From Psammoneis japonica (taxonomy: Eukaryota), in contig QPGO01000380.1 of the NCBI GenBank assembly GCA_008632985.1, positions 1 to 35,845 of the forward strand: a DNA stretch of 35,845 bases, given 5' to 3'. Made by a program: the position numbers and the translations under genes. Below, in pieces: positions 3,363-35,845 of this stretch (positions within the stretch are counted from its first letter, which is position 1; each line of letters opens with the position of its first letter). The notes beneath the pieces were generated by a model. It was not told the DNA's origin, did no database searches, and saw only the letters and a list, made by a program, of their open reading frames with translations.

Positions 3363-4549
3363 GCCTCAGTTTGGTTGCACTGTGGGATTCCCCAAAATTC
3401 CCCGCGATTGCCACCTTTTGCCATGATTTTCCATGGGAAGCTTGGTTTCCCAGGGAATTGCCATGAACCACGCTTCATCATGTGCACACTCCACACATGA
3501 GTGAAAAATTGCACATTGGCAATTCCCCCACCCGTGCTTCCCTCTCATGCATTTCTGCACCTTCTGCTGGTGTGTGCCGGGACGCAGGAGCCAGACAATC
3601 GACTGACTGCAACAAAAATGGGCATCACGCCATGGCACGTTCACGTCCCATTTGTGACGGCTGTTGTCTGTCAATCACAACACCATTCAATGCATTCAAC
3701 AATGTCGATTGAACGGGAACTGTGGCACAAAACACAAGATGAAATGTGGTTGCACATGTGCAGAACACCAGTGCAATTGAGTTGTCAGTCATCAGTTTTT
3801 CTTTTGTCGTGCAGCCACAAATGCAAGCCATGAGGCACGCAGCAAAGGCCAAGGCAAAAGTGGAACCACACACAGCTGATGACAACAATGTGGCAGATTG
3901 GACAGTCACCTTCATTCTTCCATTTGACACATCTCATGTGCAGAATGAAGGGGGTTGTTTAGATCACTCTTTTGTCATGCATTCAGAAAGGCAAGCCATG
4001 AGGCGCCTGGTGTGAAGGACAAGGCAAAAGTGGAGCCGCACATGGTTGATGAAAATGTGGCAGATTGATTGACAATGTTTGTTCTTCCCTTTGACCCATC
4101 TTGTGCACAGAGTGCAGTGCATCATTTTTTCCTTCTTGTGTCGAGCGGTCACAAATGCAAACCACAACAGCTCCAGAGCAAAGGCCAAGGCAAAAATGGA
4201 GCCTCACATGAGCGGTGTCAATGTGTGTGATTCATTGGCAAAGTTTGTTCTTCCCTTGCTCTGCCATGAGGGGTGGCTTTGTGTTGATTTGTCAATGCAT
4301 CCATCATGGTCATCGGCGGCAGACCGTGGCCGCGGCTGGACAATGTGGAGTGAAGCACACCCGCCCATGCAAAACAATGTGGAAATTGCAGCACCGCGTT
4401 CATTTTTTGTTCCTTCCCCTGACCCCTTTCAGTCATTCCTTCCTGCCAAATTGCCCTCATTTCCTGGGTGTTCCCCAAATGGGTGAGGTGGTTCCCCCTT
4501 GCCCTTGCCATTTTGGGGAATCTCCAAATGGGCAAAACCAAACTGAGGC
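3363..4549. mobile_element. Non-autonomous TIR element (~1.19 kb)
   Basis: Perfect 14-bp terminal inverted repeat GCCTCAGTTTGGTT / AACCAAACTGAGGC, extended by an imperfect GATTCCCCAAAAT match. No transposase ORF. TSD not clean (AACA vs AACC). Confidence 0.6.
3824..4300 (+). repeat. Three degenerate ~170-bp direct repeats inside the TIR element
   Basis: Recurring AAGG(C/A)CAAGGCAAAA(G/A)TGGA...AATGTG...TTCTTCC core near 3845, 4015 and 4181. Confidence 0.7.
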
Positions 4550-4671: not shown

Positions 4672-5075
4672 GACGCGTTCCAGCTCTAGAGGTGGGACCT
4701 TGCACTGCTGAAAAGTGACACAATCATTTTTTGTCAAATGTCGCATGTTTTGCACATGCATTTCTGAGTGTTCTGTTGTAAAAAATTGCTCCACACTGCC
4801 TGTTTTGCGAAGCCAAAGGCTTTCTGTTGTCTGCGTTCACATCAATGAAAATGCACTGGGTGTGTTCTTCAATGTCTGAAGAACATGCCCGGACATGCTG
4901 CAAAGAATGCACTTCCAGCTGGTGCGAAGGAGGAGATGCATTTGCAAAATTGCCTCTTTTTCTGTTGGCAATCATTGACACATTCATTGCTTGACAATTT
5001 TACTGTGGAGCTCACATGTGGATTTCTGCGGGCCCTGTGTCACAAAAAGTCCCACCCAGAGGACTGGAACCCGTC
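4672..5075. mobile_element. MITE family A, divergent copy A1 (404 bp)
   Basis: TIR GACGCGTTCCAG...CTGGAACCCGTC. 4-bp TSD TGGA at 4668-4671 and 5076-5079. Internal similarity to 35347-35741 in the same orientation. Confidence 0.85.
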
Positions 5076-5079
5076 TGGA

Positions 5080-6165
5080 GCTCATTTGGGGACATCAACA
5101 CAGTCGCATTCTTGACGTAGTCTCTTGGTGAACTGGCCCAAATCATGCAACTGTCCTGTGTCTGGATCTTCTCTGTCATCACTCCTGGATGAGTCTTGGG
5201 CTCTCCTTCACTCCCAGCCTTGATCTTGCAAAATTCAGCAATGGACTTGACCACAGATTTGCCCTTGTGTGACACTGTCAACACATTGTCTACATTGACC
5301 AACAGCACCCAACAATGCTTGTGCTCATCTTCACAAACTGCTGCTTGCAAGCATGCACTGGGATCTGCTTGTGTTGGTTTGAAACCCATGTCTCACAAAG
5401 CAGAAGAACATGCTGCTTGCCATGAAAATCCTGCACTCTTCAGTTTGTGTGGCACTGTCACTGTGACCAGCATGCACCCTTTAAACTTGCCACACTCAGC
5501 TCCGCCTTCAAACCATGTCTTCTCTGCACATGGTGCACTCAAACAGGCATTCTCCAAGTTAGCTGCAGTCACATCCACATCATTCAAAGCTGCCAGCATG
5601 AAAGCAATCCACACACACTGTCCCTCAAAACAACGCTTGAGTGTGTGGTCAAATCTGGTGCCTTCGCAGTGTGGCCTCCAGCAAAAAACGGGGCCTTCCG
5701 GGTGAAATCCATCTCAACATCAAACACCATGTGGCATCATTGCATTTCCTGACACCCGCGCAGCTTCTGACTCCTTCCTTCACAAACTTGTTGTGGTGTT
5801 TTGCCATCGTGCTTTTCCCATGCCATTTTCACCTTGGTCATCTCCTCATCAATTGCCAGGCCCAGCAACCAGCCCCCATTTTGCGGCCAATCTGCAAAGC
5901 TTCATCAATGCTTTGATTTGTCCTCAGAGATGATGTGATTCCATTTCCTTGGCACGTGAGGCACCCACCAAGCAAACACTGGCTCATCAACAATCCAGCT
6001 CACAACTGCATGCTCTGCTGCTTTGATTGGGTTAGAATCCTTGAAGTCCTTTGACTTGGCCCAGTCAGAGCTGCCGCCCTTCCATGCCACCAGTGTCTTC
6101 CAGCCTTTTGTTGTCTTCTTCTTCTTGTCATGGCCTCCTGCAGTCTCAATTGCACCCTTGTCAGA
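5080..6165 (-). pseudogene. pol: Ty1/Copia (CoDi-like) pol fragment: pre-RT region and reverse transcriptase
   Basis: Degenerate motifs KTTKGWKTLVAWKGGSSDW...EPVFAWWVPH, IAFMLAALNDVDVTAANLENACLSAPCAEK, GFKPTQADP...LLVNVDNVL (YVDD region), SPRDYVKNA. Multiple stops and frameshifts. Confidence 0.85.
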
Positions 6166-6720
6166 TCCAACAACACCTTGTCCAAACAGCAGGTGGCCAC
6201 ATTGCTCCATCAACATTCTGGGAGTGCACCAGATGCCATCAATCAGAAGTGTCCCTGGGAGCTGTGTGGCAGGGAGATGTCATTCTCCACATTTTTCTGC
6301 CAGAACATTTTGGAGAAGCACCACTTCAAACCCCTGCATGATCTCATCTGATTGTGCATTCTCATTGATGTCACCAGCTGGAGTTGTTTGATTGCCATCA
6401 TCCCTGCAGCTCTCAACCTCCTTTGCCAGATCCTGCAGCCATGCAACCCTTGGACATCTGTCATTGTTGTGTTCCTGCAGGTGCCTGCAATGCTGTGTTC
6501 AGACTGCTCTTGTCCCCTGTTTGCCACTTGCTGGCACATGGTCTGTGGGCTGTCACTGTGTGGGGCACTGCCCCTGCTTTGCCTCCAAATTTTGACCGTG
6601 CCCATCTGCCCAAGCTGGCAGCATCCATTCCCTTCATGATGATTCTGTGGCCTTCTTGTTTGATGCTGAGCATCATTGTGCCTCCCAGCTGACAGTGCAA
6701 TGATTGATCATCATTGATGT
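6160..6720 (-). pseudogene. APE-type endonuclease remnant of a non-LTR retrotransposon
   Basis: Across frames: GGTMMLSI...LGRWARSKFGGK...VTAHRPC, DRCPRVAWLQDLAKEV...AGDINE, IDGIWCTP...GHLLFGQGVVGSD. These correspond to the APE GDFN, ID and SDH motifs. Confidence 0.7.
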
Positions 6721-6784
6721 TACAACCTGCAGAGATGTGAGGTGCCAGCTCCTGGCACTTCCTGAATCTTGCTTGGGGTCTTGA

Positions 6785-7179
6785 GACGCGTTCCAGACGC
6801 AGGTGGGAATCCGTGTGACATTGGGCCCGTAGACTTCTACGTGCGAGCTCCGTAATAAAATTATACGGTAATTAAAATGTCAATGATCGCCAACAGAAAA
6901 TGAGGCAATTTTGCGAACGCACAAACTCGCACATGCTTGAAGTACATCATTTTTTACTTGGCCAGTTACATTCTTCAGACATTGAAGAATGTAACTGGCG
7001 CATTGTCATTTCTATAAATTTGTTATATAAAACGTCTGGGGCTTCGCAAAACAGCGAGTCTGGACAATTTTTTTAAACATCACACGTAGAAATCTACGTA
7101 CGAAACATGCGACGGATGATAAAAATTGTTGTTGTCACACGGCAGCACTGCGAGCTCCCACCTAGGGCTGGAACGCGTC
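6785..7179. mobile_element. MITE family A, young copy A2 (395 bp)
   Basis: Perfect 12-bp TIR GACGCGTTCCAG / CTGGAACGCGTC. TSD TTGA at 6781-6784 and 7180-7183. Colinear reverse complement of 35347-35741. The only TpA-rich island in the window. Confidence 0.95.
6961..6999. repeat. Perfect 17-bp-arm hairpin at the centre of MITE A2
   Basis: GCCAGTTACATTCTTCA-gacat-TGAAGAATGTAACTGGC. Confidence 0.9.
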
Positions 7180-7183
7180 TTGA

Positions 7184-8430
7184 CTTGTGTGGTGCTGTTT
7201 TCCAGCAGTGCCCTGTTTCACTCATTCAAAAGACATCAATGCTCTTTTCAAGTGCAGTTTGATGAATGCTGTTGTTCTTTGTTTGGGTTGAGGGTGTTCT
7301 TCCATCATGTTGGCTGATTCAGTGACTTTCTTGGCACACAATTCTGCTGGTTTGCCAAGTGGTTGCCCGGTCTTTTTTCCAGTTTGCCTGGGTCAATCTG
7401 TTCAGACATCATCATCCGCCATCCACAAGGCTTGGTGCACTCTGAATTCTGCAGCACCTTGGGTTTAAGAAAGGCACCAAAAGAGCCTTTGACAGCAATT
7501 TTGACTGTCTCAACCAGTTCATCAACTTGGATGTGAAAGCCAAGGTGCATCATGTCAGCCCAATTGTCCTTTTCTGTGCCAGGTCTGAGTCAGTGAAGGT
7601 GCATCTTCATCTGCACAAACAGCAGTTTCTTGAGTTGGCTTTGGAGTGTGCCATCCTCTTGGATGACAGGTCTGTCTTTGGCGCCACTGGTCCAGGTTGA
7701 GATGGCAAAACCGTCTCTGGTCAACTCACACACTCAGTTGCTGATAAATCCAAACTTCCTGCTGAGAGTCTTTTCAGCATTTTCTTCTTTGTTCTGTTTA
7801 ACTGCCTTGGAGAGCTTGAGCATGAAGCATGTGAAACATTTTTGTTGCAGTTTCTCAGCATTTTGTTGCTTGCTCATGCTGAGTGTGGGAGCTGGTTGAG
7901 AGTGGTTGCCCCATGTGTCCTGATCACTGTCACTCTTGCCATCATTGCCATTGGCAGTGGGCTTGCTGGCCCTTGTTGGTTTCTCTTGGTCAGTCATCTT
8001 GGTGGCATGTTTGTTTTTCTCAACTTGCTTGTGCTGTGGTTTGCTGCTGCTCACCTTTGCCTTGGACCTGGCAGCAGTCGTTGCACTTGCATCCTTGTGC
8101 TTGGCAGGATTTTCTTTCTTGCCATTGTCTTTGCAGGTTTTCTCAGCATTGCCATTTTTCCTGGAAGGGTTTTGTTGTGGTTGCCAGTGTCCTTGGTGTT
8201 TTCCTGTTGTGTCCTTCTTTGCTGTTGGTTTCACAGCAATCTTCTTTTCCTTAGATTTGCTTGAGCTCATCATTGACATCCATGTTTTCAATTTTCTTGG
8301 TTCTTTGTGGAACTTGCACAGCACCCAAGTCCACATCTGAAAGCTCATCAAATGAGAGTCTGGGGTTGGGTTCTCCACTGAGGTCATCCTCTTGACTGTT
8401 CTCCTGTTCCACCTCACTTTTCAACATCAG
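7184..8430 (-). pseudogene. Lys/Asp-rich decayed ORF, possibly ORF1 of the LINE that carries the APE remnant
   Basis: Charged low-complexity translation, upstream of and on the same strand as the APE remnant. No diagnostic motif. Confidence 0.25.
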
Positions 8431-10520: not shown

Positions 10521-11011
10521 TCATGCACACATTTTTGCCCTGCCGTTTGCCACTGCAATCTGGATTTCCCTGCATTTCTTGGTGAAATCACCTGAACATC
10601 AGATGGCCATTGATTTCATTCATCCTCACATGCTCACTTGTGCAACTCAACCTCACAAACAGCTCATTTGGCTGTGATTGGCATGGTTTCCACCCAGGGA
10701 CACACGGCATTTTGTCGCATTTGTCGACATTTTCTTAAATGAATTGATGATTTGTCGTGAAAAGACGCAAATTGCGACAAAATGTCAGGGTTGGCAACAA
10801 ACAGGACAGAAACATTGTTCAGCCAAGTTTTAAAATGATTGATGTCATTCACAACCAACCTGCACTTTGGCGATGTCGTTTCAACAAGTGGGGCAATTGA
10901 CAGAATTTGGCGATTGATGTCATCGACGAAAATTCATCCGACAAATTTTGTCGGACATCCGACAAATTTTGTTGGATGTTTGTCGGATGTCCGACAAAAT
11001 TTGTCGGCATG

Positions 11012-11140
11012 CGACAAGACATGACATGACACGACAAGACACGACATGACACGACATGACAAGACACGACACGACACAACACGACAAGACACGACACGAC
11101 ATGACACGTCACGTCACGACACGACACGACAACTCACGAC
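11012..11140 (+). repeat. Pentamer microsatellite (GACAC/GACAT/GACAA)n
   Basis: Directly visible 5-bp periodicity. Confidence 0.95.
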
Positions 11141-11356
11141 TCACGAACGAAACACCCACGCCCCCCGCACACGCCAACCACTGACGTCTCCATTGACACT
11201 GTGTCTCTTTTGCACGATGATGCAAAGCGACGATCATGCTGCTCTCGGCGGTCTCCAACATTTCACCCACAATCTCGTGGAGATGGCACGTCCATGCGAC
11301 TGGGCACTTCTGAATGTTGGGGAGCGTTGCGTTGTCGGCATGTCGCAAACATCCGT

Positions 11357-11475
11357 CTGTCGGCATTTGTCGGCTCTTGTCAGCGTTTGTCGGCTCTTGT
11401 CGGCATTTGTCGTATGTTGCCGGGGTTTGTCGGGGCTTGTCGGGGCTTGTCGGGGTTTGTTGGGGTTTGTCGGAC
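11357..11475 (+). repeat. 10-bp tandem repeat (GGnnnTTGTC)n
   Basis: Directly visible 10-bp periodicity. Confidence 0.9.
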
Positions 11476-12381
11476 ACGACAAAATTTGTCGCACGTCCGA
11501 CAAAATTTGTCGCATCCGACAAAATTTGTCGTGCGCATGACAAAATCGCCAAAACATCAACTGACAAGTGCAGTCTTCGCCAAAAGTTAAACTCATCATG
11601 TGGCACTGCAGTTGATGCAACGTTTGTGTTTGGGACACGCCATCGCCAATTAAATGATGTTTTTGTCTTGTTTGTCGCCAATGATTGAAATTTGTCTCAA
11701 AGGGCGTTTTTCACGACAAATCGTCCAATTCATTTGAGGGAATGTCGCAATTGGCGACAAAATGCCGTGTGTCCCAGAGCCTCCCTTGGGCAACATTGTG
11801 CATGGATGACATGTGTTCCAGCCGCACGCAACCCAAGCCATGCACAAAAACAACATTTGCACAATTTTTGCGCGGTCTCTCACTCACAAATGAGTTTTCA
11901 CCAACAAAAGCACAGATTTTCACAAATTTGACTGTTTTGCAACACTGACAAGGCTCACGTCAGTGTTGCAATGTGATTGTTTTTGTGCCATCTGTGTTTT
12001 TCATTGCAACAAACGAATCGCAACACAGCGGATGATGATCGGCCAAATTGTTGCTGTCATTTGGATGTCAACACAAGTGATTTGCATGTGATGCTTTCTG
12101 GCAGGTGTTCCACCTGCAAAGCAATCTCTGCGCACAATGAACTGCCATGCAATCAGCGTTGAGTCCACTTGGGAAGTTTGTGATGCACATCCAATGAGGA
12201 GTTGAACGCCAAAGAAAAAATTGTTTAAATGTCCACATTCTAGACACCTGTTAAAGCCCATCCACTCAAAAGCACTTCACACACAAGAAATGCTGCACAC
12301 AGGAGAGATGCATGATTCATGTGGTTCAAAATGGATTGTTGCTTTGTGCATCACCTGGGACTGGAACACGTCGGATGCATG

Positions 12382-23512: not shown

Positions 23513-23846
23513 TGCAGTGTCGCACACCCCATTTTTCTGATGTGCAGTGTTGATGATCCCACCAGATGCAAGAGGAGCCATTGCAATGGGCATCGCTGAA
23601 AGCGACCTCATCACCTCGGTCTCTCTCTCACGACTTTGTTGTCACTCAAGTCTTCACCTCATTGGACCTTGCACTGTGATTGCAGTCAACTCAAGAGCTG
23701 GATGGAGACTGGGAACAACACAAACAGATTGAACAAACATGAGAAAAGAGAATTACGAGCAAGAGCAGCAGCTTGGGCTTTGACCACCAGAAGCAAGTGC
23801 AACAACGCAAATGACACAAGCAGAATTTGGCAAGCTGAGTGCATCA
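23513..23846 (+). repeat. G2 5' LTR (TG...CA)
   Basis: Start matches the reverse complement of 31297-31393, which abuts a PPT. Remainder matches 35214-35845. Ends in CA just before a TGG. Confidence 0.75.
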
Positions 23847-23848
23847 AT

Positions 23849-23866
23849 TGGAGTCAAAGGCAGAGT
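23849..23866 (+). promoter_or_regulatory. Putative primer-binding site
   Basis: TGGAGTCAAAGG 2 nt after the LTR end, conserved in G3 (35200-35211, minus strand). Cognate tRNA not identified. Confidence 0.5.
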
Positions 23867-23905
23867 CCTTGGAGAGGACTGTTTCGCAATTGCACTCCAT
23901 GTTGC

Positions 23906-25561
23906 ATGATGAGTGATTCTTTAAAAGAACCTTGCATCAATTGTGAGGCAAAATTTGAACATTCTGATTTGGACGACATGAAATTGAGTCAGTCGTGTGA
24001 TGATGGCAGCACTCGCACTTGGAAGTGTCCGTGCATTCATGGCACCCATGGCATTGAAGCTTTGTTGTTTGTTGAGGATCGTTTTTGCAAGATCGCCATG
24101 AAATTGGAGTTCACCACCGGCGAGGAATTGCTTGACAATTTTGAAGAAGTGTTGGCCGACGCTGCTGAGGACAAATGGGCGAATTTGACTGACGCTGTCA
24201 CTGATGCTGACAAAACTGTTGCGCGTTTTGATCAAGAGATGAGTCATTTTTACCTGTCTCATTGTGACAATGAGGCATGTGACACTGTGATTGAACACTT
24301 GCCAACCCTGAAGAAACTGTTCAAATTTGAAGCACAGGCGCGTGCTGATCGCATGGAGACCTCAACTTGCCACTCTGACAAGTTGCCAGGAAATGCTCCT
24401 CAAGTCAATGATGCTCAGAAGAAGAAGATGATCTTTGACAGCTTTCCTCATCAGCGGCATGAGATGTGCACTCAAACAGGACAATCAATGGCCAACGACA
24501 GTCTCACTGAGATCATTGGCTGCGCGAACAATGAGAAATCCTTTGCTGACAAGAGCAGCAACAAGAAACAGGACAAGAAGCAAAAGTGCCCTGTGCATGT
24601 GCTGGGCGCTGAAAAGAAGATGTGTCATGACTTTGTCGTTGTGAAAATCATGAGCCAGTTTAGAGTGGAGAAAGTGGGATCGTGCGAACAGGGAATCTTG
24701 CCAAATCCCTGTTTGTTCGCATTTGGATCGCATCAAATCGATCGTGCATTCGCATTGTGGATCGTGCGAATCAAGCCATCACGCACCATGCATGAGTGAT
24801 GTCATCGTGTGGAATCACGCCACCATTGTGGGCCAGACGACGGGCTGGTGTGCTTCACATGGATGCTCTCTCAGCGTCCTTCTGGAATTTCCTAAGACCT
24901 GGAGCCATGCCCTCCTGTGGTCGTGCTTCCCAGGTGCACGTTGACAACACTACGTTGTCACGCACAAGAGGCTTGTGCACGGTCTTGCCGTGTTGTCCAG
25001 CAGCGAGGCATGCTGCAAAAGAGCAACACTTCATCCTCTCAGGCTTCCAGGCAAAGTCAAGGGAACAATGCTTGAGCTGATCCAGAGCCCAGGTGCCCAG
25101 TGCACGCCAATCATGACCACAAATGGAAGGATTGCATTTTGAATCCGGACAGCCAAAACTGTCAACCAAGGACAGACCGTGGAGGTCATGGTGGAGTTCG
25201 AGGTGGAGGCTGTGGAAACTTCCAAGGTGGAGGTTCACAAGGCCAAGGAGGTCGTGGCAACTTCCAAGGTCAAGGACGTGGCAGCCATGGCAATCAAGGC
25301 AATTGTGGTGGCCGAGGACATGGCAACTGCCAAGGATGTCAAAATTCCCAAGGCGGAGGATCTCATCATCAAAATCAAAATGAAACCGAAGCCAACGGGG
25401 ACACCCAAGGCTGTGAAAATCTGGCTGGAACAGCTCCTCCTGGTGGCTGGCAAATGGAGTCACACCATTTTGATCAAGGAGGGCCTCGTGAGACACGAGG
25501 TGGAAATGGATGCAACCAAGGCGGTCGTTTTCCTCAAGGCCAATGCAGCTGGTGTAATTGA
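23906..25561 (+). pseudogene. gag: G2 gag, interrupted by a ~430-bp insertion
   Basis: MMSDSLKEP...KCPCIHGTHGIEALLFVEDRF, then CPVH...HKWKDCILNP knuckle and an RGG/Gly-rich tail. Confidence 0.8.
24587..25017. mobile_element. Insertion in G2 gag, probable solo LTR of another family
   Basis: Absent from G3 (empty site near 34470-34485). TG...CA termini with TSD AAAG, or alternatively a 7-bp duplication GCAAAAG. Confidence 0.7.
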
Positions 25562-26010
25562 CAAGGGATGGAAGTGCCCAAGTCAGAGCGTGTCGCTCAA
25601 TCTTTTTATGTTTCATGTGATTGTGATTGATGTGTGTGTTTTAATGTTGATGAAAGTGTGGGGGACCTGATGGAATCCTGTGCTGTGAATGAAGAAGAAA
25701 TGGGCAGCGCCTTGGAGCATGCTGCGCCAACCCCAAAAACTGCGACTCCCAAACCATTGAATGTGGTGCCTGTGACGTTGATGGCAGCGCACACAATTCA
25801 AAATCAAGAGAGCAAGTGAATGTTGTGTGTGTCATTAGATTCAGGGGGCACTGACACACTTGTGCATTCTTGAGTTTTGCCCAAGGGAGCCAATCCAACC
25901 ATGAATGATGAGGGACAACTGAGCTTTCAGACAGCAGCCGGATGATGTGAATCCTCCCGACATGTTGTCATGAAGGATTTGGTGCTTCCCAAGTTTGACA
26001 AGTCCAAACA

Positions 26011-29000
26011 CGGCAAGTGTCCCACACCGGATTGACAGAAGCTGCAGCTTTGCTGATTGAGCATCTCCGGCGACGAACCCCAGTGTCAGCATCCAATTTT
26101 CTTGCACCTGAAGAAGTCAGTGGGAAATTCAAGTCGTGGACAGAATCCACCTCTGCTTTGATCAAGTCCGGTCTTCATTTGGGCCGCTGGAAGGCTGTGC
26201 ATTCTAAGCACATGTGTTCTTCAGAAACGGATCCACAAGGTGACCCCACTGTGAAAAGCATTGAATTGGATGAAGTCCAAGACAGCCTGCAACAGATCCG
26301 CTTGAATCTGCTCAACTGCGCACTCAAATGGGGACATTCTTGCAACAGGTGGTGTGACGTGGTCAACATTGTGATCTTCAAAGAGCCAGGCAATGACAAG
26401 ATCCACCATCTCCACGTGATCCATGTGCATGAAGCAGACTTCCAGTTGATTGCCAATGTGAAATGGCGTGCCCTGGTGCAACATGTGGAACAACACCGAT
26501 CATTCAATCCAGGTGTCTACGGCACTCGAGCTTTCCTGTGTGCTCAGACTCCTGCATTCCTTGAAGTTCTGATGTTGGAGAGACATCAAGGGTCTCTCGC
26601 AAGACGTTGGTCACGAGTGACAATGACTGCACCTCGTGTTGTGACAGGAATCTCCCGGTCCTCATGGCGATCATGTCAGTCAGTTTGGGCATGGAACCAT
26701 CAGCAGTGGCTGCAGCAATTGCAACCAACCATCTAGCCAGGCACTGGTTGCCAACCTTGTTGGGTCTCTCTGAGGAATTTCACTCACACAATGCAGAACA
26801 CCCCATCTGCGGTGCTGGCCAAGGCAGTGGCAACTCACCTTTTTACTGGAACAACTTGTGCAGTGTTCGAATCACCAGATGGGTCTCATCAGCTCAACAT
26901 CTGCACAAGAGGACATGCAGACGATGCGCCCAAGCAGGTGAATGACTTCAGAGCATCTCCTCAGCCTTCTGCAGAAGATTTGGCTCCCAAATTGCAGCAC
27001 AATGACCAACTCTGGTGCAACTTGCTCCATGCCAGTGGACACAAACCAGAACTCCCCAAGTGTTCCTTTCATGCTGTCGATTGGGACTTCTCAGAATTTG
27101 GTGAACTGAGCCTCCAACCGCATGACCAAGACATGTCTGTGGAAATTTTCTCAGCCGATCACTCCTCTTCCAGACACAGCAAGCAGCTGTCTCGCTTTGC
27201 TCCGCACAAAACACTGCCAAAGAAACAGCAACAAGTGCTCCAAGCCAAGAGTGATGGAAAAGCGTCATTCACCAGGGCTGTCCCTCTAGACCAGACCAAA
27301 TTGTGGAGATGCTGCCACGCGTGTCATTTGCCGTTGATGTCTTTTGTTCTTGCTGGCTCTCACTTTGCTTCCAAAGTGTTGAAACAAATGCAGCAACGCA
27401 CTGTGAGAGTTGCATTTGCCAAATGCGGTTGCAACAGGAATGCAAAGTGCTTGACACTGTGTGGCCCTCAATCTCTTGGTGGTGGTGGATTTCGTTCTCT
27501 TGACGCAGAACAGGGAATTGCCCAAATGCAACAGCTGTTGAAACATTCTCGAGGCGCACAGCATCTTGTTCAAGACGATCAACCACACGCTGCGGCTCAC
27601 ATTGCCATTGCATGGAATCAGCTGCATTCAGGCACAGGGGTCAGCTTCCTCAGAGACATTGACACTCCTCATCCACATGACAAGTTGCTGTGGCTTGCAT
27701 CAGTTTGGTCTTTTCTGCAGAGCATTGAAGGCCACATTGCATTGTCCCAAGATGGAGCACTCCCCTTGCAGAGAGTCAACGATCAGTTTTTAATGGATGT
27801 TGCTCTGGAGTCACAAGAATTCACTTCAGAGAAATCCGATGGATCAATCATTGCCACTTGCATCTTCGGGTCCTGACAGTCTTGGATGTCACTCTGGCAG
27901 ACGGACGCTTCTTAGATGAGTCCAAAGTTTGCGGTGATCTCACTTGCCTCAGCAGTGACAGCACCCTCAACAACGTCGAACAGATTGCACCTTGCCACCG
28001 TGCATGGAGTCCTTGGATGTGGCCATGTGAGCTGTTGTGTCATCAAGACTCAGTTTGTTTGAAAGCTCCCTCAGGAGACTGGCTTGTGCCCCCTTCTGAA
28101 ATGAGGATGCAATGTTCAGCGCATTGGTCTCCCAAAGAATCACACCTGTGCGTTCGATCTCCGTCAGGATTTGACATTTTTCCAGTTCAGGACACTTTTG
28201 CCACGTCGCTGCACCAACTCGAAACGGTTCCCTCCCCCTCTGACTCTTCATTCCCAGTTGAGATTGTCTCCACAGATGACGGCAGATGGAGGTGCATTCC
28301 TCATTGCCCGAAACTCTTGGTTGAAACAAGCATTGCCTCCCTGGGAGTCCTCTCTCTTTTCAGACATTGATTTCCGCACTCCCGTTTGTGAACTGATGGA
28401 CCATTTTGCATCAAGTTGCCCAGTTGCGGGCAGCGACGGATCCGTGCTTCATCACGATGCAACCTTTGGATGGACGATTGCATTCAACGGCAGACCCTTG
28501 GTGGATTGTGCTGGTCCTGTGTTTGGTCGTTCGCCATCATCCCATCAAGCTGAGGCTTGCGGTTTTCTCTCCCTGATTCGGTTCATCCATTGTCTGACAG
28601 AGTTTTGCAAGATGTCAACGCATGAAGGTGTTGACAACTGGTGTGACAACAAGGCCTTGGTCCGTGTCCTTTCCAGATTGTCTTCCAGCCACCCGTCCAT
28701 TGACCCGTCGCCACAAGAGCATTCCGACAGAGACTTTTGTCTGCAACAACATGATGCCAATGTTCTTTCATCTGACTGGGATGTCATCAATGAAACACAC
28801 TTAACGCTTGAAGCCATTCCTCAGGCTCTAAATCCTTCTTCCCCCGGGCAGGCACTGTCCACAGCTTGGGTGAAAGGACACCAGGACAGACAAGCTCCAG
28901 TGGAGACTCTCCCACTGAATGCACAAGTCAACGTGCGTGCAGACAGGTTGGCAGGAAGACACCAAGGACAATGTGACGCAGACACAACGGAGGTGCTTCC

Positions 29001-30118
29001 CTTTCCCCATTGTCAATCACACCTTTGCCTCACCAATGGAACGGTCACTGCAGGAATGAAATCCACGGTCAGATGTGCTGCAACGGCTCCTGCTCTCTTG
29101 GCATGCATTCGGGAAAGAAACGATTGGGATGAATCTGTCACAGAAAAGATCGGCTGGAAGGTCCATGCAACATTGGGGTGCAGGTGCTCCAAGAAACTTG
29201 TCTCCACGGTTGAACTCATCCACGACCTCCTTCCAACAAACAAGATCACTCATCGGTGCAATCCTGTGCGGCCACATCATTGCCTCATGTGCGAACACCC
29301 CATGGAGGGTCGTGACCACATTTTAAGATGCCCCGCCAACGAGGCCTGGCATCGCAAATTCCTGCAGGGCTTGCAAAAATGCTGCGACAAAATTGACACA
29401 ATGCCACCTCTGCGTGATCTGCTGCTGACTTCCCTTGAGACATGGCTGGAAGGTGAGATGCAGCATGAATCTGACATTGCCCCGATGCTGCGAACGTCAT
29501 GGAAAGCCCAGTCAGAAATGGGATGGCGAAAAGTTTTTAATGGACAGTGCTCTGCCCTTTGGAATGTGTTTCAGGAGATGCATCTTCGTGAGATGGGTCT
29601 GTTGGAGAAACACAGGAAAGAGAATCGACCTCCTCCTGTGTGGGGAGTGCAGATGGGAACTTGCATTTGGAAGTCCTGGTGGGAACTGTGGGAAGAACAC
29701 AATCAGGAGGTTCATGGTCATGACGCGGATTCAAGGAAATCATCTTTACAGCGTCAGGTGGAAGCCGAGCTCATGGCTGTTTACAACAAAAGACAGGATT
29801 GTTTGTCTAAAGACAGAGAGGTGCTGCTGGATTCAGCAGACGACCACATGACCCACTCCACACTGCAGATTGTGAATTGGGTTGCTGTGGTTAAACCACG
29901 TCCAAAAGAAAGCCCAAAGAAGGCAATGCGCGAGGTGCTTCATGGCACTCACTCCATTGCAAGCTGTTTTGGATGGGCATCATCTCATGGTGATGCCCCT
30001 TTCGGCTGATCCCAAGAAGCTTCTGCCGCACTCAACGGTGCACTGGAAGTGTGGGTCAGCCGGCGCTGGCTTGGCTGGCAAAGGAGTGACAGCACTTTGA
30101 ATGTAGATCTGGTTTTTT
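26011..30118 (+). mobile_element. 5'-truncated non-LTR retrotransposon with RT, RNase H and Cys/His motif (Ambal-like)
   Basis: TSD TTTGACAAGTCCAAACA at 25994-26010 and 30119-30135, with the empty site present in G3 (33488-33504). Motifs SGLHLGRWKA, GAGQGSGNSP, GHADD, GPQSLGGGGF, SDGS...SSHQAEACG...WCDN...WVKGHQD...NVRADRLA, CLMC...DHILRC. Clade assignment is an inference. Confidence 0.92.
26017..30009 (+). pseudogene. LINE ORF2 remnant (RT-RNase H), frameshifted
   Basis: ORFs 26017-26736, 26607-26945, 26791-27876, 27858-28370 and 28171-30009 join into one polyprotein. Confidence 0.88.
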
Positions 30119-31243
30119 TTTGACAAGTCCAAACAAGTTGATGGAATTGTGGCTCAAGTGTTTGATTTGCCGTGCAAGCATGATGTGACATTGGGTCAAG
30201 ACTTCCTGGCTAAAGCCGGAACAGTGTTGGACTTCCGGTTTGGAGTCATGAAGTGGTTGGATGCTGCAATCCTGATGAAGCAATCCAATCATTGGAGCCA
30301 AGTGCAGAGTTGGTTGGATGTGCTGGATGATCACAAGGAGGACAAAGCCAGTGCAGAATCATCAAGTCAAACCTTCATGTCAGATGCGAAGCATGAAAAA
30401 GTGTCGACCGAAAAAGTGGCGCAATCGCAATCTCATTTGACGCAGGAGCAACGCGATGAACTTCAACCCGCACTTGAGAGTCATGAAACTCTTTTTGATG
30501 GAACCCTTGGCAAATGTCCACACAAGACTGTGCACTTGGAAGTTGATGCCAATGCTGTCCCCTTTCATTCTAAAGCCTGTGAAGTGTCCAAACAAGACGA
30601 GGCGGTTTTCAAGAAGGAACTGCAACATCTCTGCAATGTTGGTGTGCTGGAGCCAGTGGGACCAACTCAATGGGTGGCAGAAACCTTTGCTCCACTTGCC
30701 AAGTTGACCGGCAAAAGCAAATTGGAATGGACTCCAGAGTGTCAGAAAGCCTTTGAAGATGTGAAGACTTCAATGATGGATGATGCCCTTTGGGTCCACC
30801 CAAATCACAACAAGCCCTTCCATGTTTGCACCGATTCCGCCGATTGTCAAATGGGCACAGTGATCATGCAAGATCAAAAGCCGGCAGCACATTGGTTGCA
30901 GAAGCTCAGTTCAGCACAGCAGAATTGTTCAACCACCAAGAAAGAACTTCTCGCGGTGGCAATGTGTTTCAAAGAATTCCGTTCCATGTCACGGGGCTGA
31001 TTGTGCTGTTTTCACTGATCACAAAAATCTCACCTTTTGCACACTCAATTCTCAATGAGTGCTCAGGTGGAGGCTCTTCTTGGGAGACTTTGCTCCAACC
31101 TTTGAGTGTGTTGACAGCAAGGACAACCTGTTGGCAGACTGCTTTTCGTGATTGCCACGCATGGATCCACCAATGGAAGGGAAGTGCACTCCGAATGAAG
31201 GCCAACTGACAGATTTCAAGTCTTTATCTTGTCAGACCTTGCA

Positions 31244-31519: not shown

Positions 31520-33930
31520 ACTCGACACGGTGTGATGTGCCGAACATCAAGTTGTTCCACCACATGAGGCGCCCGTTGAACTGCAACAGTGCCATTGACA
31601 TGCACCTGAACAATGGGATGATGGCCATGTGCTCAAGGTGCGAGCTTTGAAGGATCAACTGTCTTGACAAGCACTTGATTGCCAACTTGAAAATCACAAG
31701 ATCATTGTTTGGCATTTGCTCTGTGGAGATTTGTGCCAATGATTGCTTGTCGATGTTCTTGAACAGTGGCAAGATCCGCCAGAACTGGCAGGTCTAAAAT
31801 CATGTCATGGTGGAATGCCATGGCACCGGGTGAAACCTTGAGAGCTTGGGATGCCGCGCATTGCATGGCATGCATTGCTGTTGCCAAAGCATCATCCACC
31901 AGTTGATTGCCTTGTCCGACATTCTGTGGAGGATGAAGATGAAGCAAAGTGCGCAAGACATTGCCAGCAGTTTGATGCACGCGTTTGCATGCCGCATTGG
32001 CTTGTGGATTTCTGGATGCAGTGGGCACATCTTCCACTCCTGCCTGTTGCAACAATGGTTGAAAATGTTCTCCAACAAATTCTCTGCCATTGTCATGAAT
32101 GCAACGGTTGGGACGAGGATGACGAGACAACCAACAATTTTGAAATTCCTGGGAGACATGTTCGGAGGTTTTGTTGTCCACACGGATGAGTTCAGCAACA
32201 TTCAAAACCGCATCAATGCAAGTCAAAGCGTTGAATTTGATCTCCTGGCCCTGAGTGTCAATCTTCCAGGGACCAATGAGGTCGACTGCAGCTTCACTCC
32301 ATGGTGACAAAGATGCTTTGCGTTCAGGTGGCTCCCCATGTCCAGGACCCAAAGTTTTCAAGTGTTGACAATCAACACAACAAAATTCTTTGCAGGTCCA
32401 ACAAAGGACAGGATGACAAAAATGAGAGCCAATGGTTGAATGCATGCAATGCATTCCTGCATGTCCCAACATCCTGTGATGCCATCGAATCATGTCAGGC
32501 AATGAAGCAGTGGGAATGCCGATTTTCCAGTCTGTTGGAGGAGCATTGGGATGAGCTCAACAACAAATCACAGGACGTTGGTTCACACATTCAATCACGA
32601 ATCGTTCCGGATGTTGTTGTTGCATGTTGTTCAATTCCACATCAACAAATTGACGCTGTTGAATTCATTGCACAGTTGTTGGGTTTTGCATTTCATCAAG
32701 TGAAGGACAGTCCAAATGGAGTGACAATCGCACAAAGGTCCTTGGAGTCATTGCCCAGCTCCACATGACAGTGAAACATGGTGAGGTCCAACTTGGTCAA
32801 AAATTCACACCCTGATCGTCGGTGTAAAACATCTTGAACAATCGGTGGAGGGCAAACTTTCCGCTTGAGAACCTTGTTCAACTCTCGAAAGTCAGATGCC
32901 CACCTCACTCGTCCATCTTTCTTGGGTGTCACAAAGGCTCCTGCTGCCCATTCCATTGGTCCCACTGGCTCTGGCACACCAATGTCACAGAGATGTTGCA
33001 GTTCCTTCTTGAAAACCGCCTTGTCTTGTTTGGACACTTCACAGGGCTTTGGAATGAAAGGGAACAGCATCAGCATCAACTTCCAAATGCACAGTCTCGT
33101 GTGGACATTTGCCGAGGGTTCCATCAAAAAGAGTTTCATGATTCTCAAGTGCGATTTGAAGTTTGTCGCATTGCTCCTGCATCAAATGAGTTTGCGATTG
33201 CGCCACTTTTTTGGTCGACACTTTTTCACACTTTGCATCTAACATGAAGGATTGACTTGACAATTCTGCGTTGGCTTTGTCCTCCTTGTGATCGTCCAGT
33301 GCATCCAACCAATTCTGCACATGGCTCCAATGACTGGATTGCTCCATTGGGATCGCAGCATCCAACCATTTCATGACTCCAAACCGGAAGTCCAACACTG
33401 TCCCGGCTTTGGCCAGGAAGTCTTGACCCAATGTCACATCACACTTGCACGGTGAATCAAACACTTGAGCCACAATTCCATCAACTTGTTTGGACTTGTC
33501 AAACTCGGGAAGCACCAAATCCTTCATGACAACATGTCGGGAGGATTCACATCATCCGGCTGCTGTCTGAAAGCTCAGTTGTCCCTCATCATTCATGGTT
33601 GGATTGGCTCCCTTGGGCAAAACTCAAGAATGCACAAGTGTGTCAGTGCCCCCTGAATCTAATGACACATGCAACACCTGCTTGCTCTCTTGATTTTGAA
33701 TTGCACGCACTGCCATCAACATCACAGGCACCACATTCAATGGTTTGGGAGTTGCAGTTTTCGGGGTTGGTGCAGTGTGCTCCAAGGTGCTGCCCATTTC
33801 TTCTTCATTCATGGTGTGGGATTCCATCAGGTCGCCACACTTTCATCAACATCAATGCATGTGTGCTCATCACAATCACACGAAACATAAAAAGATTGAG
33901 CAACACGCTCTGACTCGGGCACTTCCGTCC
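31520..33930 (-). pseudogene. pol: G3 pol: protease, partial RT, integrase
   Basis: SLDSGGTDT (PR); WAAGAFVTPKKDGRVRWASDFRELNK, TKLDL, TPFG (RT); WHHRMLGHAG...CVDC, VDLIGPW, IHDNGREF, NPQANA (INT). Confidence 0.92.
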
Positions 33931-33934
33931 CTTG

Positions 33935-35154
33935 TCAATTCAGCCAACTGCGTTGGCCTTGAGGAAAACGACCACCTTGGTCACACCCATTTCTGCCTCG
34001 CGTCTCACGAGGTCCTCCTTGATCAAAATGGTGCAACTCCACTTGCCAGCCACCAGGAGGAGCTGTGAAGCCGGATTTCCACAGCCTTGGGTGTCGCTGT
34101 TGGCTTGGGTGCCATTTTGATTTTGATGACAAGATCCTCCGCCTTGGGAATTTTGAGATCCTTGGCAGTTGCCATGTCCTCAGCCACCACAATTGCCTTG
34201 ATTGCCACAGCTGCCATGTCCTCGACCTTGGAAGTTGCCATGACCTCCTTGGCCTTGTGAACCTCTGCCTTGGAAGTTTCCACAGCCTCCACCTCAACCT
34301 CCACCATGACCTCCATGGTCTGTCCTTGGTCGACAGTTTTGGCTGTCTGGATTCAAAATGCAATCCTTCCATTTGTGGTCATGATTGTCATGCCCTGGGC
34401 ACCTGGACTCTGGATCAGCTTGAGCATTGTTCCCTCGACTTTGCCTGGAAGCCTGAGAGGATGAAGTGTTGCTCTTTTGCTTCTTGTCCTGTTTCTTGTT
34501 GCTGCTCTTGTCAGCAAAGGATTTCTCATTGTTCATGCAGCCAATGATCTCGGCGGGACTGTCGTTGGCCATTGATCGTCCTGCTCGAGTGCACATCTCA
34601 CACCACGAATGAGGAAAGCTGTCAAAGATCATCTTCTTCTTCTGAGTGTCATTGACTTGAGGAGCATTTCCTGGTGACTTGTTAGAATGGCAAATTGAGG
34701 TCTCCGTGCGATCAGCACGTGCCTGTGCTTCAGATTTGAACGGCTTCTTCAGGGTTGGCAAGTGTTCAATCACAGTGTCACGTGCCTCATTGTCACAATG
34801 AGACAGGTAAAAATGACTCATCTCTTGATCAAAACGCGCAACAGTTTTGTCAGCATCAGCAACAGCATCAGTCAAATTCGCCCATTTGTCCTCAGCAGCA
34901 TCGGCCAACACTTCTTCAAAATTGTCAAACAATTCCTCGCCGGTGGTGAGCTCCAATTTCACGGCAATCTTACGAAAACGATCCTCAACAAACAACAAAG
35001 CTTCAGTGCCATGGGTGCCATCAAAACGCGGACACTTCTGAGTGTGAGTGCTGCCATCATCACATGACTGGCTCAATTTCACGTCCTCCAAATCAGAATG
35101 TTCAAATTTCACCTCACAACCAACACAGGGTTCTTTCAACGAATCACTCATCAT
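33935..35154 (-). pseudogene. gag: G3 gag
   Basis: Near-identical to G2 gag but without the insertion. One frameshift in the Gly-rich tail. Confidence 0.82.
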
Positions 35155-35346
35155 GCAATGTGGAGCACAATTGCAAAACAGTCCTCTCCAGGGACTCCAC
35201 CTTTGACTCCAAATGATGCACTCGGCTTGCCAAATTCTGCTCGTGTCGTTTGCGTTGTTGTGCTTGTTTCTGGTGGTCAAAGCCCAAGCTTCTGCTCTTG
35301 CTCGTAATTCTCTTTTCTCACATTTGTTCAATCTGTTTGTGTTGTT

Positions 35347-35741
35347 GACACGTTCCAGCCCCAGGTGGGAGCTCGCAGTGCTGACGTGTGACAACAACAA
35401 CTTTTGTCATCCGTCGCATGTTTCGCGTGCAGATTTCTGCGTGTGACATTAAAAAAAATTGTCCAGACTCGCTGTTTTGCGAAGCCCCAGACGTTTTGTG
35501 TGACAAATTTATAGAAACAACAATGCGCCAGTTGCATTCTTCAATGTCTGAAGAATGCAACTGGCCAAGTAAAAAATGATGTGCTTCAATCATGTGCGAG
35601 TTTGTGCATTCGCAAAATTGCCTCATTTTCTGTTGGCGATCATTGACATTTTAATTGCCGTGTGATTTTGCTGTGGAGCTCGCACGCAGAAGTCTGCGGG
35701 CCCAATGTCGCATGGATTCCCACCTGCGTCTGGAACGCGTC
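35347..35741. mobile_element. MITE family A, copy A3 (395 bp), inserted in the G3 5' LTR
   Basis: TIR GACACGTTCCAG / CTGGAACGCGTC. TSD TGTT at 35343-35346 and 35742-35745. Empty site visible in the G2 LTR near 23714. Confidence 0.95.
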
Positions 35742-35845
35742 TGTTCCCAGTCTCCATCCAGTTCTTGAGTTGACTGCAATCACAGTGCAAGGTCTAACGA
35801 GATAAAGACTTGAGTGATGACAAAGTTGTGAGAGAGAGACCGAGG

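Follow-up and report, generated by a model that had tools for sequence, protein, structure and literature searches.

We found one published precedent for targeted A>G mutagenesis of chromosomal DNA, a 2026 preprint on Bigelowiella natans in which an enzyme is proposed (Mettrop et al., bioRxiv 10.64898/2026.01.13.699255). The preprint describes hypermutation that is specific to TpA in integrated DNA of NCLDVs and virophages: in two viral insertions TpA changes de novo to TpG or CpA, with a rate near 6e-7 per site and generation, and in some of the lines the ongoing rate is about 1000 times baseline. It also reports transposon-type sequences that are poor in TpA, and puts forward ADAT2 as a candidate deaminase; it does not mention diatoms, and a term search of its main text for context, flanking and trinucleotide gave no match. 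The RIP system of ascomycete fungi also makes targeted, dinucleotide-specific transitions on both strands and destroys the coding capacity of transposons, but as described (PMC2621366) it changes C to T, mostly at CpA, and so creates TpA. In the diatom Phaeodactylum, the report on mutation accumulation gives an AT-biased spectrum (2.21), and TA is not among the mutagenic dinucleotides that it names (PMC6604790). A literature search that covered few subscription papers found no report of TpA erasure in a diatom.

Here we analyze a 35,845-nt stretch of DNA from Psammoneis japonica (the window), in which we found a process that matches the one in B. natans on spectrum and signature. In both, TpA changes by transition to TpG and CpA on both strands, regionally, in foreign or mobile DNA, which leaves TpA depleted and CpA/TpG in excess, and in both an ADAT-type deaminase is a proposal. 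Set against what the preprint describes, there are also differences. B. natans belongs to Rhizaria whereas the diatom is a stramenopile, and the targets here are MITEs and LTR and non-LTR retroelements. Erasure is nearly complete here (TA o/e 0.05, compared to 0.45 in the B. natans NCLDV region), and two further features are seen in the window, an order of preference for the base 3' of the A and a decay of CpG alongside. The process was observed de novo in B. natans, whereas here it is reconstructed from copies. We rejected RIP, a premeiotic and methyltransferase-dependent process set off by homology between repeats, as a candidate because the direction in the window is TA to TG/CA, not C to T raising TpA; TpA is removed, by the opposite chemistry.

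The whole explanation that we consider best, with a probability of roughly 0.58, is that a TpA-specific A>G process acts on silent transposon DNA, and that the TA-rich MITE copy called A2 is a recent arrival there. A second and distant lineage with near-complete conversion of its transposons would make TpA mutagenesis a general eukaryotic defence beside RIP and methylation, and would suggest that a natural DNA adenine deaminase exists, which is relevant to base editing. It would also distort age estimates of transposable elements (TEs), repeat annotation and protein calls, through changes of Tyr to His/Cys and loss of TAA/TAG stops.

MITE copies in the window

A2 is a 395-bp MITE copy with 23 TA and 26 CG intact (6785..7179, no strand assigned). 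It is bounded by perfect 12-bp terminal inverted repeats (TIRs; left 6785..6796, + strand; right 7168..7179, - strand) with longer imperfect subterminal pairing, and by a 4-bp target-site duplication (TSD), TTGA, on either side (6781..6784 and 7180..7183, both + strand). Both of its junctions are spanned by contigs of run X1 with 0 differences. A 17-bp palindrome lies at the center of the element (6961..6999, no strand assigned). In the related copy A3 both TAs of the palindrome are converted symmetrically, to TG in one arm and CA in the other, and the stem is therefore kept.

A3 (35347..35741, + strand) has the TSD TGTT and lies in a retroelement stretch that is duplicated in the window; the paralogous stretch retains the empty target site, a single TGTT (23714..23717, - strand). 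We place A2 and A3 in one subfamily because they have in common a minority letter at 6834 and the loss, in the same direction, of five TAs of the run X2 path. The third copy, A1 (4672..5075, + strand; TSD TGGA), belongs to a distant subfamily with about 71% identity, and has 3 TA left. The TSD is thus 4 bp long in 3/3 copies (TTGA, TGTT and TGGA) and variable in sequence, and the ends read GAC...GTC. The element may be Sola-like. A2 resembles MITEs, which are non-autonomous TIR DNA transposons, in its shortness, lack of coding capacity, TIRs, TSD and many copies. In run X1, 1968 contigs aligned to the A2 stretch, and those listed with foreign flanks numbered 16, 28 and 13 at three places at the left end, so the family is large. 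A metagenome scan with a 20-nt MITE motif gave 23 loci, none of which had similarity beyond the motif, and all are chance matches.

The earlier note had described A2 as a TpA-rich island with sharp edges at its TSDs. The island is clear: TA o/e is 0.73 in A2 (CG 1.39), the 2-kb flanks on its two sides have 0.06 and 0.07, the remainder of the window has 0.05, and the largest number of TAs in any other 395-nt stretch of the window is 7, as against 23 in A2. Over the whole window, o/e is 0.06 for TA, 1.72 for TG and CA, and 0.40 for CG. The edges are sharp in CpG, with 26 CGs inside A2 and 1 and 2 in its 500-nt flanks, but TA alone places them loosely: the outermost TAs inside are at 6830 and 7163, and the nearest outside are at 6721 and 7466.

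Direction, specificity and sequence context of the TpA changes

The reverse complement of A2 aligns to A3 over 395 nt with no gaps and 34 differences. These include changes at 19/23 of the TpA sites of A2: 13 have become TG, 4 CA and 1 CG, and in the remaining one a T>A change at the edge of a T/A run has moved the TA by one base. By comparison, 5/26 CpGs of A2 are lost in A3 (Fisher P = 4.8e-5 for TpA versus CpG loss), and 9/297 other bases differ (P = 1.8e-12 for TpA bases versus other bases). Among the changed TpA bases, 19/20 are transitions. The hand counts of the earlier note, about 18 of 23 TpA changed and nearly all to TG or CA, about 5 of 26 CpG lost and few other differences, agree closely with these numbers (17 of the 19 changes are to TG or CA), and the three pairs of motifs it quoted are all exact. 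At positions 80-81 of the A2 reverse complement (7099-7100 in A2), where TA reads CG in A3, both bases are changed.

TA is the older state, and the direction of change is TA to TG/CA. This follows from three kinds of data, of which the first is the MITE family itself, as seen in the assembled contigs of 4 of 9 runs (40 of 87 rows of differences). Run X2 holds 0.47 million letters and is assumed to reflect high-copy sequence; its contig 9 (6826-7050) has 6 differences from A2, of which two create an additional TA and none falls in the 17 TAs covered (17/17 kept). The five further TAs of X2 that are absent from A2 and A3 are at 6959, 7004, 7108, 7127 and 7146. At each of three TAs (6862, 6864 and 6943) T>C as well as A>G is listed for run X1, and an X5 contig from another study (depth 4) resolves the TAs at 6856, 6862 and 6864 oppositely to A3.

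The second kind of data is a protein outgroup test, made on columns that have Tyr in at least 60% of homologues. The change of TAY to CAY or TGY, which turns Tyr into His or Cys, is exactly a TA>CA/TG change. In the first set of retroelement proteins 1/20 Tyr-conserved columns is kept (7 His, 5 Cys), and in the copia-type remnant at 5080..6405 conserved Tyr is kept in 1/11 (6 His, 2 Cys). Together, the two protein sets keep Tyr in 2/31 columns and have His or Cys in 20/31 and Arg in 0, whereas Trp is kept in 26/26 and 6/7 in the same comparisons. With 0 changes of Tyr to Arg among the 31 columns, double changes of TA to CG must be rare.

The opposite polarity, in which TG/CA would be ancestral and A2 would have gained its TpAs by a RIP-like change of CA or TG to TA, is almost certainly wrong. 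The earlier note had named such an ancestry as the finding that would overturn its reading, and both the family and the protein data point to TA instead. What speaks for the opposite polarity is that the depth-weighted majority of X1 has the converted letter at three listed TAs (55% at 7024, 70% at 7100 and 62% at 7120), so that a naive majority consensus is not TA everywhere. Yet copies differ in whether a given site is TG or CA, and from an ancestral TA either is one step away; the 17 TAs covered by the high-copy X2 contig are all intact, and it has additional ones; conserved Tyr has gone to His/Cys; and, as the third kind of data, A2 retains 26 CpG, 26 TG and 31 CA, unlike a product of RIP.

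The changes are specific to TpA. Sorted by the preceding base, A>G between A2 and A3 affects 19/46 As after T, 2/77 after A, 3/57 after C and 0/43 after G (5/177 for the non-T total), and one of the two AA>AG changes is private to A2 and goes in the opposite direction. ApT, the dinucleotide of 6mA, was rejected as the target, since AT is not depleted (o/e 0.91). These counts bear on a quite unlikely alternative, that an error-prone polymerase of the Pol eta kind (WA>WG) replicates or repairs methylated heterochromatin and that the loss of TpA is a by-product of 5mC turnover. Pol eta prefers WA motifs. In favor of such a route, the window is poor in CpG (o/e 0.40) as well as in TpA (0.06), and CG methylation of TEs by DNMT5 is reported as established in Phaeodactylum (PMC9998398). 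But AA>AG is rare beside the change at TA, AA is not depleted (o/e 1.26), only 1/20 changes at TpA bases is a transversion, and the element at 10697-11775 is without TA (o/e 0.07) yet has a CG o/e of 1.33.

The base on the 3' side of the A also matters. Outside A2 there are 114 surviving TAs in the window, of which 62% are YTAR and 3% RTAY. The survivors fit an additive two-strand model in which the base 3' of the A sets the rate of independent hits (chi2 3.95, df 6) but not a flat model (chi2 107.7, df 9). The additive model, normalized by all TG/CA with the same flanks including those not derived from TA, gives the order of hit rates TAT > TAC > TAG > TAA. This order predicts which strand was hit in 36/47 non-tied events (13 ties set aside; 11/47 go against it); leaving out the A2-A3 pair it predicts 24/33 (P = 0.014), in events that are not fully independent. 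The skew of 13:4 between TG and CA in A3 (P = 0.049) is accounted for by context. We saw no significant coordination between strands: neighboring TG/CA-discordant sites agree in 23/44 cases, and in 12/18 within 30 nt, which gives no support for a processive enzyme. TATA runs are resolved on one strand in A3 and in X5, in numbers too few for a test.

Both strands of a single copy were hit in A3 (13 TG, 4 CA), which weighs against changes made at an RNA stage by ADAR-like editing of UA and then made permanent by reverse transcription. RNA editing would suit a window that consists mostly of retroelement DNA, and ADAR is described as favoring a U before the edited A (10.64898/2026.01.13.699255). 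Elements with TIRs and TSDs, however, have no RNA intermediate, and editing at the RNA stage fails because a TIR element was hit on both strands. An artefact of sequencing or assembly is opposed by contigs of X1, which may be the source sample, that have 0 differences from the TA-free flanks, and by runs X5 and X7, from two other studies, which carry converted copies. Even taken together, RNA editing and artefact are very improbable.

Rates of loss and the age of A2

With the slip site excluded, A3 has received 1.70 Poisson-corrected hits per TpA (95% 0.91-2.96), which is 8 times the 0.21 hits per CpG (0.07-0.50), in keeping with the earlier claim that TpA is lost far faster than CpG. Outside TA, TG, CA and CG sites there are 4 differences in 181 positions, 3 of them private to A2, so at most 1 belongs to A3. 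Per base, TpA loss is therefore about 150x background; the factor is 28x if the upper bound is used or if all 9 other differences are charged to A3. At least 28x background bears out the view that the process is fast relative to background mutation. These ratios are time-averaged and come from comparing copies; per TpA base, arithmetic on the numbers in the preprint puts B. natans at about 15,000x background, against 28-150x here.

TpA loss goes first, and does not need CpG loss. The 1.08-kb element at 10697-11775 has lost its TA (o/e 0.07) and kept its CG (o/e 1.33, with CGs partly in tandem repeats). The slower change of CpG to TG/CA seen here can be put down to deamination of 5mC in DNMT5-methylated diatom TEs, a process that cannot remove TpA and that in A3 is about 8x slower. 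The 10697-11775 element is non-autonomous, with imperfect TIRs of about 50-119 bp, internal 10-nt tandem repeats and, if its ends are moved in by one base, a possible 3-bp TSD of CAG.

Five letters outside TpA are private to A2 (6855, 6936, 7007, 7008 and 7142). At each of them A3 agrees with 95-99.8% of X1 family depth, and the A2 letter is carried by 0.2-3% of X1 depth. The claim that A2 is young thus needs a correction: judged from the sequence comparison, A2 would be young as an insertion and not as a lineage, with a neutral branch that is not shorter than that of A3. Because of these five changes, a tree built from non-TA/non-CG sites would give A2 the longer branch and would not date its exposure.

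A2 is nevertheless probably a recent insertion into already converted DNA. It has lost at most 1/27 CpG against A3, whereas pairs of retroelements in the window have lost about half of their CpG per copy at similar divergence. On this CpG clock, residence of A2 throughout has P of about 1e-7 at the point estimate and about 0.10 at the lower 95% bound of 3/181, and from pair to pair the calibration differs fivefold (0.17-0.93 hits on CpG for each 1% of divergence). Post-insertion losses of 0/23 to 3/26 in A2 translate into an exposure below 8-19% of that of A3. Among the X1 joints listed there is none for an empty site of A2, and contigs cannot show that an empty allele is absent; since the empty-site allele was not seen, the recency of A2 is inferred. 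Of the two parts of the earlier claim, recent insertion therefore stands as the best reading; the internal clock, in contrast, measures time spent in the compartment, and A2 is not the ancestral sequence. We rejected absolute dating because a mutation rate for the species is lacking.

The alternative is that A2 is an old resident, either shielded locally by a bound protein or open chromatin, or restored by gene conversion with an unconverted master as donor. Its five private letters, and its larger number of private changes at neutral sites than A3, suit this idea, as does the lack of an empty-site joint among those listed. On the other side, protection would have to end at the TIRs for TpA and CpG alike (1 and 2 CG in the flanks), the sister copy A3 was unprotected despite having the same sequence, and the TSDs of A2 are intact and identical; the contigs, too, are unable to exclude an empty allele. 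We regard an old, sheltered A2 as unlikely. Depth of X1 on the A2 flanks (6485-6756 and 7199-7436) is about 35, compared to 47-95 for several other single contigs listed, and from this low depth the A2 stretch may be hemizygous.

Proposed agent and the surrounding mobile DNA

The data show the direction, the specificity, the hits on both strands, the context order and the rate ratios. On either strand the A of TpA is changed to G by a process specific for this dinucleotide; the product is TG or CA, and with TpA gone from the site the process ends there. Hits on the A are faster when a pyrimidine follows it (TAT > TAC > TAG > TAA), and a slower decay of CpG runs alongside. The process would act on silent transposon-rich DNA after insertion. 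A2 would have come from a lineage outside the mutating compartment and jumped in too recently for conversion, while the exposure of its sister A3 has been long enough for some 1.7 hits on each TpA and some 0.2 on each CpG. The targeting would be by silent chromatin. We found no host gene in the window that could serve as an untargeted control, and all of the elements identified in it are mobile DNA and are converted. A2 itself is an unconverted reporter with 23 TpAs, already within converted DNA.

As the agent, we favor by a modest degree an enzyme with the TadA/ADAT fold, which would deaminate DNA adenine to hypoxanthine, read as G at replication. The TadA-derived editor ABE7.10 is reported to prefer 5'-YAY (PMC10188366), and the TAY preference found here is like it, which favors adenine deamination by such an enzyme. 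ABE7.10 likewise makes A>G changes in DNA, but it is laboratory-evolved, is guided by Cas9 and edits CA too, whereas the process here is essentially TA-only.

From sequence alone, a lesion on A is indistinguishable from one on the T of the other strand: T>C at TpA is A>G on the opposite strand, and TAY is RTA there. A thymine hydroxylase of the TET/JBP type could thus mark the T in R-TA of repeats, with the modified T or its repair giving T>C. In dinoflagellates 5hmU marks repeats and is reported to replace T preferentially in TA and TC (PMC11572971). Here, however, TC is not depleted (o/e 1.08) and 0/23 TCs changed between A2 and A3; the dinoflagellate mark is linked to silencing, with no T>C hypermutation in the account cited (PMC11572971); and we saw no evidence for such a mark in diatoms in the literature. 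A thymine lesion is an unlikely substitute for the adenine deamination that we favor.

More tentatively, diatoms may possess a natural DNA adenine-editing defence in which a TadA/ADAT-fold enzyme is recruited to silenced mobile DNA and deaminates the A of 5'-TAY until no TpA is left, homologous to the process in B. natans and perhaps ancient in SAR. If true, such a defence would be the mirror image of RIP, and fresh MITE insertions would be ready reporters of its action.

The DNA to the left of A2 is a decayed Ty1/copia-type pol remnant (5080..6405, - strand), for which five long homologues match RVT_2 above the cut-off; weak Pfam matches below the cut-off were disregarded. Its copia homology ends at 6405, and we found none beyond A2, so the idea that A2 interrupts this ORF is unsupported. 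The window also contains a decayed LTR-retroelement integrase (31702..32556, - strand), used as a protein outgroup, in which 5/5 Tyr-plurality columns read His or Cys. The integrase ORF has 252 homologues; among the 120 listed, 4 name a eukaryote, all of them diatoms. Another ORF of the window has a homologue in Fragilaria, and these homologues point to a diatom-like host. A scan of viral contigs with an integrase homologue gave 4 pattern matches, 0 of them confirmed. Among the copia homologues, the proteins P0133 and P0174 (from an ENA and a JGI/IMG record) have 0% Tyr and raised His+Cys, with His or Cys where Tyr is expected; they are 2/107 of those of at least 150 aa, and their composition is a hint that the same process may act in other samples or elements.

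Stop codons in the window, counted on both strands, are TAA 138, TAG 66 and TGA 1909. Erasure of TA removes two of the three stop codons, and as a result there are long, Tyr-free, spurious ORFs. Two inverted copies of an LTR retroelement (23614-26010 plus 30119-30689, versus 32932-35845) are about 91% identical; a non-LTR-like insertion (about 26000-30000) splits one of them, and A3 splits the other. Sites discordant for TG/CA are frequent, with 49 in five aligned blocks, one of which is the 10210/12404 repeat. A further repeat, at 3786-4257, consists of three tandem units of about 166-168 nt that are 72-77% alike.
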